A DNA stretch of 61,661 nucleotides, counting the filler. It is 7 parts of 7 records of this genome, joined end to end, with 100 filler letters (N's around TTAATTAATTAA, not from the genome) between each part and the next. Parts side by side here need not be neighbours in the genome. Positions count along the whole stretch, not along the records: positions 1 to 11,837 come from SRR31156797_22015; 6 more parts are not named here. One strand, written 5' to 3'. A program made the position numbers and the translations under genes. A model generated the notes under the pieces. The model had not been told where the DNA came from. It worked only from the letters and a program-made list of their open reading frames with translations, and searched no databases. Below, one piece after another: positions 5,089 through 58,439 of this stretch (its first letter is position 1; each line of letters starts with the position of its first letter).

Positions 5089-6052
5089 GAAACAGCTTCA
5101 CATGCTCCTGGGTCCCGAGAAGGGACAGAAAGACCAGTACCTCGGGAACCTCAGGAAATCCCTTAAAAAGCGCTACGGTGAGGATCCCGAGTATCATCGA
5201 TTCTATCCCTTCGATACAGAAACCTCCCAGATCCTCTCCATACTCCGGAACGGTTCCCTCTTCTCCGCCTCCAAACTGGCGGTTGTGCTGAACAGCGAAG
5301 AGCTTAAGAAGGCGGCCGATATCAAGATGCTGGCCGAGTTCTGCAAGAACATGCCCGACGACGTCACCCTGGTTTTCATCAGCGATTCGGTTTCCGTCGA
5401 CAAGCGCCTGAGCGCCCTGGTCCCCTCTCCCCAGAGGAAGATCTTCTGGGAGATGTTTGATAACCAGAAGAAGGGCTGGGTGCAGAAGTACTTCTCCGAT
5501 CAGGGCCTGAAGATTGAAGCCAAGGCCGTGAATATGCTGCTGGAAATGGTGGAGAACAACACCGCCGATATGAAGGAGGCCTGTCAGAAGCTCTCTTTCT
5601 ATTTCAGCATAGGCGATGTTATCCGGGAAGAGGACATCGACAACTTCGTCTATCACAGCAAGGAAGAAAACGTGTTCACCCTCTTCGAAAAGATGCTGCT
5701 CAAGGACCTCTCCGGAGCCCTGGAGGTATTTTCGAAGATCACCCTGTCAGGTGATACCGATCTGATCTATCTGCTGTCGGGCCTTATGCGTCAGGTCCGC
5801 CGGCTATTGAAGGTGAAGACCGCCATCGCCGAGGGCGAGACCATTCAGACCGCTTTTCAGGCCTATGACGTCAGGGGGAAAAAGAACCAGAAGGTGACAG
5901 GCGACGGACTGAGGAAATTCGGGCTCAAGGAGCTGGAACTGCTTCAAAGACGTACGGAAGATCTCGACCGTTCCATGCGCGATCTGAAGAAGGAGATGCA
6001 GGTCATCTCCTTCCAGCTCTTCCTGGTTCGCGCGTTGAAAGGGGTTGACTGA
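5081..6052 (+). CDS. holA: DNA polymerase III delta subunit
   Basis: LLGPE N-terminus, SLF motif, 323 aa, ENVFTL collar-region motif; lexA-holA order typical of spirochaetes. Confidence 0.85.
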   Translation: MAEKQLHMLLGPEKGQKDQYLGNLRKSLKKRYGEDPEYHRFYPFDTETSQILSILRNGSLFSASKLAVVLNSEELKKAADIKMLAEFCKNMPDDVTLVFISDSVSVDKRLSALVPSPQRKIFWEMFDNQKKGWVQKYFSDQGLKIEAKAVNMLLEMVENNTADMKEACQKLSFYFSIGDVIREEDIDNFVYHSKEENVFTLFEKMLLKDLSGALEVFSKITLSGDTDLIYLLSGLMRQVRRLLKVKTAIAEGETIQTAFQAYDVRGKKNQKVTGDGLRKFGLKELELLQRRTEDLDRSMRDLKKEMQVISFQLFLVRALKGVD

Positions 6053-6157: not shown

Positions 6158-7669
6158 ATGTTTAAATCAATATTCAGGCCTCTGGCCATAGCCGTACATA
6201 TTCTGGCAATGATCCTCCTCCTCTCCCTGGTGCAGCATTCCCCTTCAGAACAGTCGCACTCTGTACTTGAGGTCCTGCTGGTTCTGATCATCGCCCTGCC
6301 CTCTCTGGGCTTTATGCTGAACAGGCCTTCCGGCGACGAGGAGAGGCTGATCGAGAAGATCTATTTCGATAACCGGACGGGTCTCCCCAACCGGGAAAAG
6401 CTGCGCCTGGACGCCATACAGCATGATTCGATTCTCTTCCTTCTCAATATCGACTCCTTCAAGGAGGTGAACGATCTCTACGGCAATCCCATGGGGGATG
6501 AGGTTATCCAGTCCCTGTCCCGTCGTCTTCAGGAGATCCTTCACGGCAATTATTCCCGCCTCTTTGAGGGGGGGGAGCTCTATAAGCTGGAGATCGACGA
6601 GTTTGCCTTCCTGTTTAATTTCGAGATGGAAGATTCCAGGGTTCGTCGTACGGCGGAGGTCATACTGGCGCATGTGAACGATCATCCCTTCCTTGTGGAG
6701 GATACGGAGATCACCATTACCATAACCCTGGGTGTCGCCAGCATGTCCAAGGAGTTCTTTCCTCTTCAGCCGGCCGCGAGAACCCCCGGCATCCTCGCCC
6801 AGGCCGATATGGCGATGAAAAGGGCCAAGGAAAGGAGACTTCCTTTTCTGGTGTACACCCACACCATGAACATCCCCCTTGAGTACGAGGAAAATATCCG
6901 CTGGACCCACCAGGTGAAGCAGTCAATTCGAAACGATCAGGTCGTTCCCTTCTATCAGCCCATATTCAATAATGCAAGCGGTGAGGTTGAAAAGTTCGAA
7001 TGCCTGATGAGGATCGTGGATGATGATGAGAACATTATCTATCCCGAGCAGTTTCTGAAGATTTCAAAGCGTTCCAGGCAGTATCCCATGCTAACCAGGA
7101 TTATGCTGCGAAAGATTATCCGGGAGATGAAAACGACCGATTTCTCCTATACCTTCAACATCTCCGTGGAGGATATGCAGAACCGCGGAACCGTAGGATT
7201 TATCCGTACCATATTGGGCGGACATCCCGAAGAGGCGAAGCGCATCACCTTTGAGATTCTGGAGAGTGAGAACATAGAGGGGGTGCCAGAGGTCTCGGAG
7301 TTCGTAAGGATGGTTAAGGAGTTCGGGTCGTCCATCGCCCTGGATGATTTCGGAACGGGTTATTCAAACTTCAGTTATATCTTGAGCCTGGATGTGGATT
7401 ACATCAAGATAGACGCCTCCATCATCAGGAACCTGGACAGGGATGAGAACGCCGTGGCCATAGCGGAGACGATCACCGGATTCGCGAAGAGGACCGGCAA
7501 AAAGACCATCGCCGAGTTCGTTCATTCCGAGGCTGTTCACGGTCTTGTCAAAGAGATGGGAGTGGATTACTCCCAAGGCTTTTATCTTGGCAGACCGGGG
7601 AGCAGCTCAGTCAGGCTTGCTGAGCTGAACGCCGGGGAACGGGACGGGCTCCCGTCCGAATTAGGATAA
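6158..7669 (+). CDS. Membrane-anchored degenerate-GGDEF/EAL protein, probable c-di-GMP phosphodiesterase
   Basis: Two N-terminal TM helices; TGLPNR and IDSFKEVND.YG..GD; signature replaced by EIDEF; EAL domain with ECLMR, DDFGTGYS, IKID, AEFV. Confidence 0.9.
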   Translation: MFKSIFRPLAIAVHILAMILLLSLVQHSPSEQSHSVLEVLLVLIIALPSLGFMLNRPSGDEERLIEKIYFDNRTGLPNREKLRLDAIQHDSILFLLNIDSFKEVNDLYGNPMGDEVIQSLSRRLQEILHGNYSRLFEGGELYKLEIDEFAFLFNFEMEDSRVRRTAEVILAHVNDHPFLVEDTEITITITLGVASMSKEFFPLQPAARTPGILAQADMAMKRAKERRLPFLVYTHTMNIPLEYEENIRWTHQVKQSIRNDQVVPFYQPIFNNASGEVEKFECLMRIVDDDENIIYPEQFLKISKRSRQYPMLTRIMLRKIIREMKTTDFSYTFNISVEDMQNRGTVGFIRTILGGHPEEAKRITFEILESENIEGVPEVSEFVRMVKEFGSSIALDDFGTGYSNFSYILSLDVDYIKIDASIIRNLDRDENAVAIAETITGFAKRTGKKTIAEFVHSEAVHGLVKEMGVDYSQGFYLGRPGSSSVRLAELNAGERDGLPSELG

Positions 7670-8290
7670 AGCTCCGTCCTCAGCGCCCTCTGGGGCTTGA
7701 TCGTTCCTGCCCAGGCCTATCAGGTAGTATTCCATGGACTCCTTCCTTACGGCCTTTGGCTTCAGTTTTTTTACCTGTTTGAACTCCCCCTTCATTCGAT
7801 CGAGGATTTCCGTCTCGTCCCCTCCCTGAAAGACCTTTATCGTGAAGTTTCCTCCCGGTTTGAGCCAGATCAGGGCGAAGTTCAGTATCTGCTCCACCAG
7901 ATTGTAGGAGCGGCGCGTATCCATAAGGCGATTTCCTGTGGTAGAGGGGGCGGCGTCGCTGATTATCACATCGAATGGGCCCAGAGCCGAAAGCTCGTCC
8001 CTCACATCCTCGGAGAAAACGTCTCCCTGGATGAAGTGGAGCTCTCCCCTGGCCTTGAATTTGCCCAGGGGCTTCAGGTCCGCCCCGACCACCACTCCCT
8101 TTCCCTTGAGAAGGCGAAGGCAGTACTGGGTCCAGCTGCCCGGCGAGGCGCCCACGTCGAGCACCCTGTCGCCCGGCTTGATCAGTTTGCTCTTGTTCTG
8201 GATCTCCTCCAGCTTATAGACGGAGCGGGCCATATAGCCCTCTTTTTTTGCCTTCTGTGTGTAGAAATCGGGACGGCTCCTGTTGGACAT
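7661..8290 (-). CDS. rlmE: 23S rRNA Um2552 methyltransferase RlmE/FtsJ
   Basis: ARSVYKLEEI, VLDVGASPGSW, SDAAP, K-D-K-E catalytic pattern; AAGGAG RBS before ATG 8290. Confidence 0.93.
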   Translation of the reverse strand: MSNRSRPDFYTQKAKKEGYMARSVYKLEEIQNKSKLIKPGDRVLDVGASPGSWTQYCLRLLKGKGVVVGADLKPLGKFKARGELHFIQGDVFSEDVRDELSALGPFDVIISDAAPSTTGNRLMDTRRSYNLVEQILNFALIWLKPGGNFTIKVFQGGDETEILDRMKGEFKQVKKLKPKAVRKESMEYYLIGLGRNDQAPEGAEDGALS

Positions 8291-8311
8291 AGGGGGAACT
8301 CCTTCTATAAT
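8283..8311 (+). promoter_or_regulatory. sigma70-type promoter (TTGGAC-17 bp-TATAAT)
   Basis: Perfect -10 TATAAT at 8306-8311, -35-like TTGGAC at 8283-8288, 17-bp spacer; predicted start falls at the 5' end of the structured element. Confidence 0.6.
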
Positions 8312-8315
8312 ATTC

Positions 8316-8512
8316 ATAAAAAACGGCACTTTTCTTCATGCTCTGCGTTACCGCAATGCCTGGTCGCAAGCTGGCGCTTGTTGATTCGGGATCGTTCTCG
8401 GGTCGAAGCCCTGGGGTACGAATCTGCTTTCGGTCATGCGAACCGGTGTCATTTACTATCGTAAATTCAGCTTTCGGTGGTCCAGTCATGAAGGAAATCC
8501 CCCGTTTTTTAT
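8316..8512 (+). ncRNA. Candidate structured non-coding RNA (~195 nt), family unassigned; 6S-like size
   Basis: Ends pair (8316-8326 with 8502-8512; 8330-8340 with 8487-8497); nested internal stems; G-U wobbles favour the + strand; promoter upstream and U6 tract at the 3' end. Confidence 0.6.
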
Positions 8513-8537
8513 ATCAAGCAACCCGGGGAGTGGAATT

Positions 8538-9590
8538 ATGGATCAGTATAGTGAGAGACTGGGAAAAATTGAAGAGGCCCTGGAGGCCCTGATGCCCGAG
8601 CGGGCGACAGGAGACTGGCTCTCCTCTATGACAGATGCCCTTTCGAGTCCCGTTCCCTCGTCCATGATCGATCGCTTCCATGCGCCAGGAAGGGAGCTGC
8701 TGGTCCGGGGCGGGAAGCGCTGGCGCCCCCTGGTGATGGTTCTCTGCTGCGAGGCCGCCGGGGGAGATCCCAAGACGGCCTATCCCTTCACTCCCATGGT
8801 GGAGATGCCCCATAACGGCAGCCTGATCATCGATGATATCGAAGACAAGTCGGTGGAGCGACGGGGGAAGCCGGCGGTTCACCTTCTCCACGGCGACGAT
8901 ATCTCCATCAACGCCGGAAACCTGATGTACTTCAACGCCACCGCCCTGGCAGGGCGCGACTCGGGGATTGATGACGGGCTGAGGCTGAGGCTGCTGGACG
9001 CCTACTGCGACAGTCTGAGGCGCCTTCATTTCGGACAGGGACTGGACATACAGTGGCACAACGACCATTCCTCCGTTCCCGAGGTCCCCGTCTATCTGCA
9101 GATGTGCCGCTTCAAGACCGGCGCCCTGGCCCGTTTCGCCGCGACGGCGGGAACCATGCTGGGCGGTGGAGACGACAGGCTCTGCGCCCTGGCCGCCGAA
9201 AGCTGGGAGAAAGCGGGCGTCGGCTTTCAGATCCTGGATGATGTGAAGAACCTGACCACCGGAAATCCTGGCAAGGACAGGGGCGACGATATGGTTGAGG
9301 GGAAGAAAAGCCTTCCCGTTATCCTCTACTACCGGGACAATCCCGGGAGAGCCGGCGAGCTGGCCGCCTTTATGGAGAAGGCCGGAAAGCTGGGTGTAAA
9401 GGAGGGGCGGGACGCCGTGGAGGGCGCTATCGCCCTGATGGAGAACGCCGGAACCATCCGCGAGGCCGGGGAAACGGCCCGTCTTATGCTCGAGGACTCT
9501 CTGAAAGAGATCCGGGAGATTTTCCCCGCTCATCCCGCAGCGGAACTGCAGTGCGGGATCATAGAGTCCTTTATCAAGAAAATGCTATGA
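8538..9590 (+). CDS. Polyprenyl diphosphate synthase (IspA/IspB/GGPPS family)
   Basis: GGKRWRP, FARM IDDIED..RRG, GQGLD, KTG, FQILDD; GGGGAG RBS before ATG 8538. Confidence 0.93.
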   Translation: MDQYSERLGKIEEALEALMPERATGDWLSSMTDALSSPVPSSMIDRFHAPGRELLVRGGKRWRPLVMVLCCEAAGGDPKTAYPFTPMVEMPHNGSLIIDDIEDKSVERRGKPAVHLLHGDDISINAGNLMYFNATALAGRDSGIDDGLRLRLLDAYCDSLRRLHFGQGLDIQWHNDHSSVPEVPVYLQMCRFKTGALARFAATAGTMLGGGDDRLCALAAESWEKAGVGFQILDDVKNLTTGNPGKDRGDDMVEGKKSLPVILYYRDNPGRAGELAAFMEKAGKLGVKEGRDAVEGAIALMENAGTIREAGETARLMLEDSLKEIREIFPAHPAAELQCGIIESFIKKML

Positions 9591-54623: not shown

Positions 54624-54837
54624 TTGCTTTCTCCGTATCGTTTGTACAAAATGAAAATTAACGGTAAATAGAAATATAAACAACAATAATCATGTGAATA
54701 ACAGTGAATTATGAGGAATATTGACAATTAATAAAAACAAGAAAAACAAACAACGATTATCGGTGAAATTGATGATTTGCAAGGGGAATGTTTGTTTGAT
54801 TTGGGATTTTATTTGAAAATGACAAATTGAATTTATA

Positions 54838-55072
54838 TTACCCTGAGTTTATCGAAGGGTAAATCTATGTTGACTCGTGGTGCAACCCCGAGATAATGAT
54901 GAAAATATTATCCAACCTTGAGTCCCGACGCTTCGGGATCGAAAGGTTGACCAAATTCGATTATTCTCTAGGTCAACCCCTCCATGAAGTCGGGGTTGAT
55001 TTACTATGGTATCAAAAACCCCGGATTTCATCTGGGGTCATCCTCAATAAACCTCTCGATATCCTCGAGGTT
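54838..55072. repeat. Array of six hairpins, four sharing a stem-GA(G/C)..(C/G)GA-stem motif
   Basis: Hairpins at 54838-54862, 54874-54892, 54913-54949, 54973-54999, 55018-55038 and 55050-55072. Confidence 0.7.
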
Positions 55073-55082
55073 AAAATTAAAC

Positions 55083-55107
55083 AAAAAAGCCCCGATTACT
55101 CGGGGCC
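55083..55107 (-). terminator. Intrinsic terminator of the serA-like gene
   Basis: On the minus strand GCCCCGA-GTAA-TCGGGGC-TTTTTT. Confidence 0.85.
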
Positions 55108-55139
55108 GCATTATTCTATTTTCTAGCTTCTGGCTTTCG

Positions 55140-57541: not shown

Positions 57542-58439
57542 TTTAGAAAATACTCTAAAAGAGAATTTAAAAAATAAAACAAAAGAGTTTAAAAGAGTTT
57601 TTCATGGTAGGGGAAACTTCTATGAAAAATTTTCTTTTTTAACAATTGATAGCATAGATAATATACTATTTACTGTCTTTTTTGAAGAGATAGAAAAAGA
57701 AGTAGAAGAAGAGCTTTTAAAACTTTTAGAGTCAATTTATGAAGAGTATGACTTTGAGTGTTTAATTCTTCAAAGAAGATATTTAAATGGTGGAGAAAAT
57801 GAAGTTTTAAAAGGTATTTTACCAAAAGTGACACAAGCTATTGAACATGGTTTAAAATATCAACTAAACTTTTCAAATAAAAATATTGGGTACTTTGCAG
57901 ATATGAAAAAAGGACGAGAGTTTATCTCTTCAATTTGTGAAGATAAAAATGTCTTAAATCTATTTTCATATACATGTGCTTTTTCTGTAGCTTCTATAAA
58001 TGCAGGAGCAAAGCAAGTAGTAAATGTAGATATGGCTAAAAATGCTTTAAATACTGGGCGTGAGAATCATACAATAAATGCTTTGGATTTAAAAAAGGTC
58101 AAATTTTTACCTTTTAATATTTTAAAATCATGGAGTAAAATAAGAAAATTTGCACCCTATGATATTATAATTATAGACCCACCTTCTTTTCAAAAAGGAA
58201 GTTTTGCGGCAACAAAAGATTATAGAAAAATAATAAGAAAACTTGATGAATTAGCATCTGAAAAATGTGTTGTTTTATCATGTTTAAATGCTCCAGAACT
58301 AGACTCAAACTTTATAAAAGAGTTGTTTAAAGAAGAAGCTTCAAGTTTTAGATTTATAAGAAAAATTGATAATTTGAGTACATTTCCTACAGACAATGAA
58401 GAAAGAAGTTTAAAAAATTTGGTTTTTGAAAAAGCTTAA
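57528..58439 (+). CDS. Class I SAM methyltransferase, RlmI/RlmK-like
   Basis: RVFHGRG, VLNLFSYTC.FSV, IIDPPSFQK. Confidence 0.88.
   Translation: MNINDLENTLKENLKNKTKEFKRVFHGRGNFYEKFSFLTIDSIDNILFTVFFEEIEKEVEEELLKLLESIYEEYDFECLILQRRYLNGGENEVLKGILPKVTQAIEHGLKYQLNFSNKNIGYFADMKKGREFISSICEDKNVLNLFSYTCAFSVASINAGAKQVVNVDMAKNALNTGRENHTINALDLKKVKFLPFNILKSWSKIRKFAPYDIIIIDPPSFQKGSFAATKDYRKIIRKLDELASEKCVVLSCLNAPELDSNFIKELFKEEASSFRFIRKIDNLSTFPTDNEERSLKNLVFEKA

Follow-up and report, generated by a model that had tools for sequence, protein, structure and literature searches.

A palindromic, MITE-like repeat as probable structured 5′ leader of a prenyl synthase gene in marine Spirochaetia

The DNA analysed here, referred to as the window, is a stretch of 61,661 nucleotides (nt) of joined spirochaete records, and the element of interest lies at 8316-8512 on its + strand, between the divergent genes rlmE and polyprenyl diphosphate synthase. 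The most plausible explanation, to which we assign a probability of roughly 60%, is that a palindromic repeat resembling a MITE, or miniature inverted-repeat transposable element, inserted between the −10 box and the ribosome-binding site of the synthase gene and was recruited as a structured 5′ leader. Transcription from the synthase promoter would make the element the first ~200 nt of the mRNA, and this RNA would fold into a rod of three covarying helices with several hairpins inside. Judged by the position of the −10 box, the transcript would start inside the 5′ strand of the outermost helix, P1, so that its 5′ end would be base-paired. Stem-loops at the 5′ terminus protect bacterial mRNAs, and the element is proposed to act in cis as a 5′-terminal protective or processing structure, like Correia and ERIC-type elements; a stable folded leader would outlast the rest of the message. 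The initial annotation, which had only the letters to go by, proposed a discrete RNA of ~195 nt running from a promoter of its own to a U6 tract, and considered a divergent 6S RNA or a cis-regulator of the synthase gene.

The divergent rlmE/synthase gene pair is widespread in Spirochaetia, and its spacer is generally short. In the 88 loci with both N-termini visible, among 111 fetched, the median spacer was 53 nt and 77 had no more than 120 nt, as against 247 nt in the window (8291-8537). The closest genome, called the sister genome here, is a metagenome-assembled genome of Oceanispirochaeta (G001), whose synthase is 91% and whose RlmE is 95% identical at the protein level; its orthologous locus (L001) includes the element. 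When a covariance model built from five members of the repeat family described below (R2) was run on 100 related rlmE-synthase loci, L001 gave the sole match and the other 99 were without the element. A metagenome scan with the synthase protein returned 54 loci, none above 72% identity, and no further orthologous copies. The window and L001 carry ~197 extra nt between the −10 box and the ribosome-binding site. Since spacers elsewhere are short and the element is found only in L001 of the 100 loci, comparison of the loci identifies 8316-8512 as a lineage-specific insertion of ~197 nt into the synthase 5′ leader. A pattern scan of genome contigs retrieved the sister genome and three matches in unrelated bacteria, by our estimate about the number that chance would give for 19 fixed bases in ~1.2e12 positions. 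Small G+C-rich hairpins, mutually unrelated, are present in three of the short leaders that are without the element (L002:2925-2965, L003:2955-2975 and L004:2955-2975).

The promoter of the initial annotation exists and belongs elsewhere. A promoter scan scored the sigma-70-type site at 8284-8311 (+ strand; TGGACA at 8284-8289, a 16-nt spacer and TATAAT at 8306-8311) at 11 of 12 matches. TTGGAC and TATAAT are retained in all eight of the closest loci (L001-L008), seven of which (L002-L008) are without the element and have the synthase start codon 22-66 nt after the −10 box. Because the promoter is kept, directly before the synthase gene, in relatives without the element, this comparison marks it as the synthase gene's own and as older than the insertion. 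The −35 hexamer is overlapped by the start codon of the divergent rlmE (7661-8290, − strand), identified from its translation as an FtsJ-type 23S rRNA methyltransferase gene (Pfam FtsJ, E = 2.8e-47; NCBIfam rrmJ, 176.7 bits, under the equivalog cut-off). The synthase gene (8538-9590, + strand; Pfam polyprenyl_synt on the translation, E = 1.7e-47) has its Shine-Dalgarno (SD) region, GGGGAGTGG, at 8525-8533 (+ strand), unpaired or weakly paired in the predicted fold. The chain length of its product is not assignable, every NCBIfam match being under its cut-off.

Model searches place the element in a dispersed, hairpin-forming, MITE-like repeat family of marine Spirochaetia. A covariance model of the window copy and L001 only (R1) found full-length relatives at unrelated sites in G006 (50.8 bits, E = 3e-10) and G030 (36.9 bits, E = 1e-6), with weaker matches in G011 and G031; G006 carries its relative elsewhere though its own rlmE-synthase spacer (L008) is short. 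One relative directly follows a glucanotransferase gene, another stands behind a GTPase gene and a third is flanked by ABC ATPase and peptidase genes; none of them gave an Rfam match. The five-member model R2 matched 10 of the 38 genomes of the taxonomic family, which are also the 38 genomes of the order. Copy numbers ranged from at least 62 in G035 (66 candidates were scored, making 62 a lower bound) through 7 in G038, 6 in G031, 5 in G032 and 4 in G030 to one or two each in G006, G037, G001, G028 and G011, the single match in G011 being core-only and beside a 16S rRNA gene. In a sample of 151 genomes of the class, R2 matched 7. A single G038 copy used as BLAST query gave 51 matches in G038 itself, with a further 9 in G058 and 5 in G030. 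BLAST of the window element against G001-G006 and against plasmids returned nothing but the orthologue; the window lineage is represented by one copy in the sister genome and one in the window.

The abundant form of the family is ~163 nt long and combines the same three outer helices and apical hairpin with an extra outer inverted repeat. Long forms, which have additional internal hairpins and are without the outer termini, include the window copy, its orthologue and the copy in G006. Long members elsewhere are single-copy and stand in varied contexts, those of G006 and G030 directly behind co-oriented genes with no promoter-like sequence just upstream. By crude open reading frame calls, 11 of 16 members were co-oriented with the upstream gene, which is not significant, and the neighbouring unknown proteins of L134 and L135 were unrelated to each other (best E = 0.1). 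The family seems to be undescribed, while its kind, a MITE-like palindromic repeat recruited into a leader, is already known. It matches no Rfam family, nothing relevant was found in the literature on repetitive extragenic palindromic (REP) or miniature inverted-repeat elements in spirochaetes, and the main text of a 2024 MITE review (PMC10969869) leaves spirochaetes, Leptospira and Treponema unmentioned.

Eighteen aligned G035 copies share sharp termini, GGAGyCTGTCGGAC...GTCCGACAGrCTCC. The flanking 2 nt are identical on both sides in 12 of 29 copies (one locus counted twice), compared with 19% for mismatched flanks; the identical pairs include the non-palindromic AA, CT and GA, so they are no extension of the palindrome. 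From these flanks a 2-bp target duplication is likely in the family, if not proven. The window copy has AT on both sides, a possible duplication that is ambiguous since the two flanks extend the palindrome. Dispersed copies with target duplications, which the initial annotation took as the mark of a MITE, were thus encountered in the family, in dozens of copies in one genome and with a likely duplication, and not in the window lineage, which is single-copy in the sister genome. The start region of rlmE (8280-8295; GGCTCCTGTTGGACAT on the + strand) agrees with the terminal repeat of the family (GGAGCCTGTCGGACTT) in 12 of 16 positions. As relatives without the element have this coding and promoter sequence too, it is native, and the likeness is either chance or a hint of target choice.

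The whole element, an outer rod of three helices around four hairpins, has covariance model matches of 199.9-233 bits; all parts are given on the + strand. Helix P1 joins 8316-8326 and 8502-8512 as a perfect 11-bp complement, with double changes across the family in seven of eight modelled pairs; the predicted transcription start (~8318) falls inside its 5′ strand, and its 3′ strand includes the T6 run, at which no terminator was called. Helix P2 (8330-8342 with 8484-8497), seen in the fold and in family covariation, has double changes in 11 of 12 pairs. Helix P3 (8349-8356 with 8472-8479; the window copy has a single C-U mismatch) has them in all eight; this long-range helix emerged from the comparison of homologues and was absent from the initial annotation. 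Hairpin P4 (8359-8390; stems 8359-8363/8386-8390 and 8366-8371/8376-8381 in alignment A6) is missing from the short family members, and its apical stem differs in sequence and holds its pairing in homologues L134, L136 and L137. Hairpin P5 (8392-8421) reproduces, by alignment and model, the widespread motif GTTCCNCG-N(5-14)-TGNGGTAC in slightly decayed form: it has lost one C, leaving no exact motif match in the window, and the orthologue matches the motif exactly. The small hairpin P6 (8431-8445; stem 8431-8434/8442-8445 in alignment A6) has double changes in two of three modelled pairs and is found in some long members only. Hairpin P7, ATTTAC-TATC-GTAAAT (8451-8466; stem 8451-8456/8461-8466), covaries in homologues, its stem being TTGAC/GTCAA in L136 and TTTGG/CTAAA in L135.

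Covariation across the family is strong. Among 15 members, 88.5% of pair cells are standard pairs, versus 68.8% with partners shuffled, and 33 of 56 pairs carry double changes, versus a shuffled mean of 17.7; the observed number was reached in none of 500 shuffles, and slid controls gave 9-17. Of the pairs in the three outer helices, 26 of 28 covary. Depending on the copy, the sequence of the outer helix is AAAAAACGG, CCTGAAC, CGGTTTTTG or CGATTTCTG and the pairing stays; this is the behaviour of a structure rather than of a protein-binding terminal repeat. The initial annotation remarked that most exceptions to Watson-Crick pairing are G-U on the + strand and would be A-C on the − strand; in the family there are 73 G-U against 15 A-C cells in the 20 rows kept of 29 (three duplicate rows, five tandem-array matches and one reverse-strand match were left out). 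The strong covariation and the large excess of G-U over A-C point to RNA-level folding on one strand, and on this comparative evidence the fold is judged to be selected, on one strand. Model-based alignments were used, as a MAFFT alignment of six members had misaligned the outer helices.

The pairings that the initial annotation listed can all form, the 61 base pairs being standard pairs in the window (seven of them G-U), and the 9-mer GCTTTCGGT is indeed repeated (8426-8434 and 8470-8478). Comparison with homologues backs the two outer helices and the hairpin at 8451-8466 from that structure, together with P3 and a hairpin around 8392-8421, but the interior long-range pairings CTGG/CCAG, TCGC/GTGG, AAGCTG/CAGCTT and GCGCT/GGTGT and the hairpin TGCG-TTAC-CGCA are without comparative support; in the orthologue, 15 cells of the listed pairs are broken and one pair shows a compensatory change. 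Similarly, the T6 run is present (8505-8510) but is the 3′ strand of the outer helix, where it pairs with an A6 run across ~175 nt; no terminator was called at this run and no G+C-rich hairpin stands before it. The SD region of the synthase gene is open in the minimum-energy folds of the window copy and of the orthologue, and neither an SD-sequestering alternative nor a terminator was seen in the predicted folds. The interior minimum-energy fold differs between the window copy and L001.

Contigs from RNA-type runs cover the element; the initial annotation had suggested looking for its transcript in metatranscriptomes. In the metatranscriptomic RNA-seq run X8 the sole contig on 8100-8800 (701 nt) corresponds to 8339-8530, and in run X6, a probable RNA run, the sole contig corresponds to 8324-8556 and extends 44 nt beyond the helix, into the coding region. 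Both begin at or just after the expected start and extend past the 3′ arm. All 701 nt are spanned in a DNA-type run, while cover from a poly-A RNA run is limited to a piece within the synthase gene; the parts of the stretch uncovered in X6, X8 and X9 are no evidence of absence. As a weak hint, the contigs fit transcription of the + strand into the synthase gene and a leader that outlasts the message. The discrete 195-nt transcript with a U6 terminator fared poorly, since no terminator was called and one contig runs on into the coding region.

Several observations weigh against a mobile repeat recruited into the leader. The window copy is without the outer inverted termini of the multi-copy members and ends in its own perfect 11-bp inverted repeat. 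As the sister genome has a single copy, mobility in the window lineage is only putative, and the link to the multi-copy short forms is transitive, via the G030 copies; R1 alone scored no short form significantly. A transposase to accompany the family has not come to light. Matches to DDE_3 (IS630-type) number 10 in G035, three in G031, two in G030, one in G038 and none in G001, and the six loci inspected were all unbracketed by family termini, other transposase families not having been searched. RAYT (Y1_Tnp, PF01797) was not found in the repeat-rich G038 and G030, which also rules against REP/REPIN repeats with RAYT; Y1_Tnp matches do occur in G001, G006 and G058, unrelated to copy number. 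Concerning the structure, paralogues make up many rows of the covariation alignment, which was itself fitted to the model, and a strain variant, 8350 A>T, would break one P3 pair in the model. The Logan contigs give no strand, ends or level, and X6 is only guessed to be RNA. As to whether the folding exceeds chance, 8310-8515 folds at −69.8 kcal/mol on the + strand (z = −4.07 from 200 dinucleotide shuffles) and −57 kcal/mol on the − strand (z = −3.06), but the shuffle z-score overstates the case: it drops to −0.05 when the 3′ flank is added, and compared with 3074 real 200-nt windows of the same 61-kb DNA (GC-regressed) the element is ~2.2 standard deviations below expectation and outside the 15 most extreme. 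The folding stability of the element alone is unremarkable for this DNA.

Of the explanations considered here, a leader that acts in cis by stabilising or processing is the most likely, followed by an inert remnant, then a separate small RNA and then a riboswitch. The element is 76% identical to its G001 orthologue, with 86-92% in the arms and 71% in the interior, versus 53.5% at four-fold degenerate sites (1255 sites from eight flanking genes). The element is therefore constrained, and the window copy has, by this measure of divergence, been under purifying selection since the split from the sister species. An inert mobile-element remnant, transcribed only through lying behind a promoter and without effect on the synthase gene, would suit the membership in a dispersed repeat family, the loss of the family's outer termini, the one-base decay of the P5 motif and a folding stability that is ordinary for this genome. 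We nevertheless regard it as unlikely, as a remnant would not be expected to show such identity, nor the joint shortening of the A-run and T-run of the outer helix, each one base shorter in the orthologue, nor a strain variant in P2 (8484 A>G) by which the pair is retained as U-G. Further strain variants, 8403 and 8409, are in an apical loop.

An independent, trans-acting small RNA of ~195 nt, extending from the TATAAT promoter to the U-run, with the synthase gene expressed by read-through, appears less likely still. The short contigs of X8 and X6 are confined to the element and its near flank, its sequence is constrained, and long members elsewhere are single-copy in varied contexts, all as this explanation would have it. 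The promoter, however, is the sole visible one for the synthase gene in relatives without the element; no terminator was called and the U-run is engaged with the A-run; both contigs pass 8512, to 8530 and 8556; and the long relatives of G006 and G030, directly behind co-oriented genes, lack a promoter-like sequence just upstream.

The position in the leader allows the action in cis on the prenyl synthase that the initial annotation suggested, but the genomic distribution disfavours a dedicated regulator of riboswitch type. A riboswitch that senses a ligand, or some other cis-regulator dedicated to isoprenoid synthesis, is improbable in spite of a 5′ leader position 25 nt before the start codon and of a multi-helix junction with conserved unpaired stretches: relatives are not found before isoprenoid genes but between genes that converge, behind genes of unrelated function or as dozens of copies, 99 of the 100 related synthase loci scanned are without the element, no terminator or SD-sequestering alternative was seen, and the interior fold differs between the two orthologues.

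The earlier description of a structured + strand RNA without a known family agrees with the Rfam search, which gave no match at gathering scores in the whole window and, for 8150-8650 at E <= 10, only one meaningless lncRNA match. A divergent 6S RNA (RF00013), which the element resembles in length (~190 nt) and in the long closing helix, can be practically dismissed, since RF00013 does not match even at E <= 10, a multibranch three-helix rod around four hairpins replaces the single central bubble, other genomes hold the family in multiple copies, and a canonical 6S RNA lies at another place in the sister genome (C2:3609650-3609835; 52.2 bits, cut-off 46.4), far from the orthologous element.

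The P5 motif, an irregular hairpin, also occurs outside the element. The 2.5-Mb genome G038 has it in 411 copies, many of them arrayed in tandem at periods of 48-126 nt (for example L169:3627-4111, L170:2577-2779 and L171:3128-3461), and there are 15 copies in G001, nine in G030, five in G006 and four in G011, versus 0-1 for the reversed control. Its apical and lower stems covary, its middle is fixed and its sequence is kept across genera. The units of tandem arrays are 98-100% identical, whole units with the 'spacers' included, and CRISPR arrays were therefore rejected as the source of the 30-nt matches in G038. A replication-strand bias was likewise rejected, a count per region having given both orientations in both chromosome halves. 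PF05635 (23S_rRNA_IVP) genes are present in G038 and G031, and an rRNA intervening-sequence palindrome associated with such a gene was also considered; none of six loci has family termini and one has a P5 motif, ~1.4 kb off. One of the G038 regions (C1:1532522-1533667; L231, L237-L239) holds a cluster of PF05635 genes followed by six N-terminal fragments with a 141-nt period.

In G001, 12 of the 15 P5 copies are located in the five rRNA operons, at ~130 nt ahead of the 16S gene (antisense), at 57 nt past it (sense) and at 30 nt past the 23S gene (antisense). In antisense, the pre-16S region matches the element's core, hairpins P4-P7, in full (model positions 39-158), from which we infer that the family's core is related to the inverted repeat that surrounds the 16S gene. 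In one such operon on C2 (L198; repeat regions 181-459, 2003-2261 and 5196-5415), a long inverted repeat with P5 and P7 hairpins encloses the 16S gene, the antisense leader resembles the sense spacer, a third P5 copy follows the 23S gene, and a boxA-like GCTCTTTAACA stands at the start of the 16S leader. A leader-trailer duplex formed by P5 around the 16S gene was set aside: all three copies possess a covarying lower stem of their own, making separate hairpins at least as likely. It is a speculative and rather doubtful extension that the family is an RNA module read by the rRNA-processing machinery and that the leader mimics a processing stem of pre-rRNA. If true, the mRNA of the prenyl synthase and many transcripts in repeat-rich genomes would be tied to a nuclease or binding protein of rRNA maturation.

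Other parts of the window deserve mention. Collinearity with G001 stops at ~11.8 kb, and positions 11838-61661 (~50 kb) have no match in 75 kb of G001 around the orthologous place. The intergenic region 574-766 is 85% identical to the sister genome without gaps, compared with the 53.5% of four-fold sites, and may be a conserved regulatory region or RNA. The strongest GC-corrected folding in the window, on both strands and at low G+C, is at 54761-55120 (z down to −3.9), within which 54883-54898 and 54983-54998 form an inverted repeat; 57601-57800 (+ strand; G+C 0.26) likewise stands out in the folding scan.

What first appeared as a novel RNA gene equipped with a promoter is probably a palindromic repeat that landed in a gene leader. 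The family has unusually clear RNA-type signatures in its compensatory changes and its one-strand G-U excess, and one copy appears to have been kept under selection in a 5′ leader since two species split, offering a clean natural case for how such elements enter gene control. The P5 hairpin shared with the flanks of rRNA genes provides a lead on rRNA processing signals in spirochaetes.

The closest known counterparts are the Correia elements of Neisseria (CREE/NEMIS). Like this family they are ~100-160-nt non-coding palindromic repeats between genes, co-transcribed with their neighbours as long RNA hairpins, and CREE alter the expression of adjacent genes. The target duplication of CREE is TA, and the likely 2-bp duplication of this family is often TA as well. 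The two are unrelated in sequence, and the window copy differs from CREE in being without the outer inverted termini of its family and single-copy in its lineage, while the family differs in its compensatory changes and one-strand G-U excess. As described in one report (PMC2649163), CREE may give rise to promoters and may bind IHF as well as RNase III, by which they are cleaved or protected. In the present case the promoter predates the insertion and was not created by it, and RNase III cleavage or protection could be extended to this element by analogy only. ERIC/IRU and the RUP/BOX MITEs (PMC2229807, PMC10969869) are, like this family, imperfect palindromes of ~100-130 nt that lie between genes, are transcribed together with their neighbours and differ in copy number from one species to another; they are known from enterobacteria and streptococci, whereas this family is from spirochaetes. 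REP/REPIN sequences share with it the short hairpin repeats, sometimes in tandem clusters as seen for P5 in G038. Unlike REP/REPIN-RAYT systems, the repeat-rich genomes G038 and G030 are without Y1_Tnp, and the P5 hairpin is conserved across genera and flanks rRNA genes.

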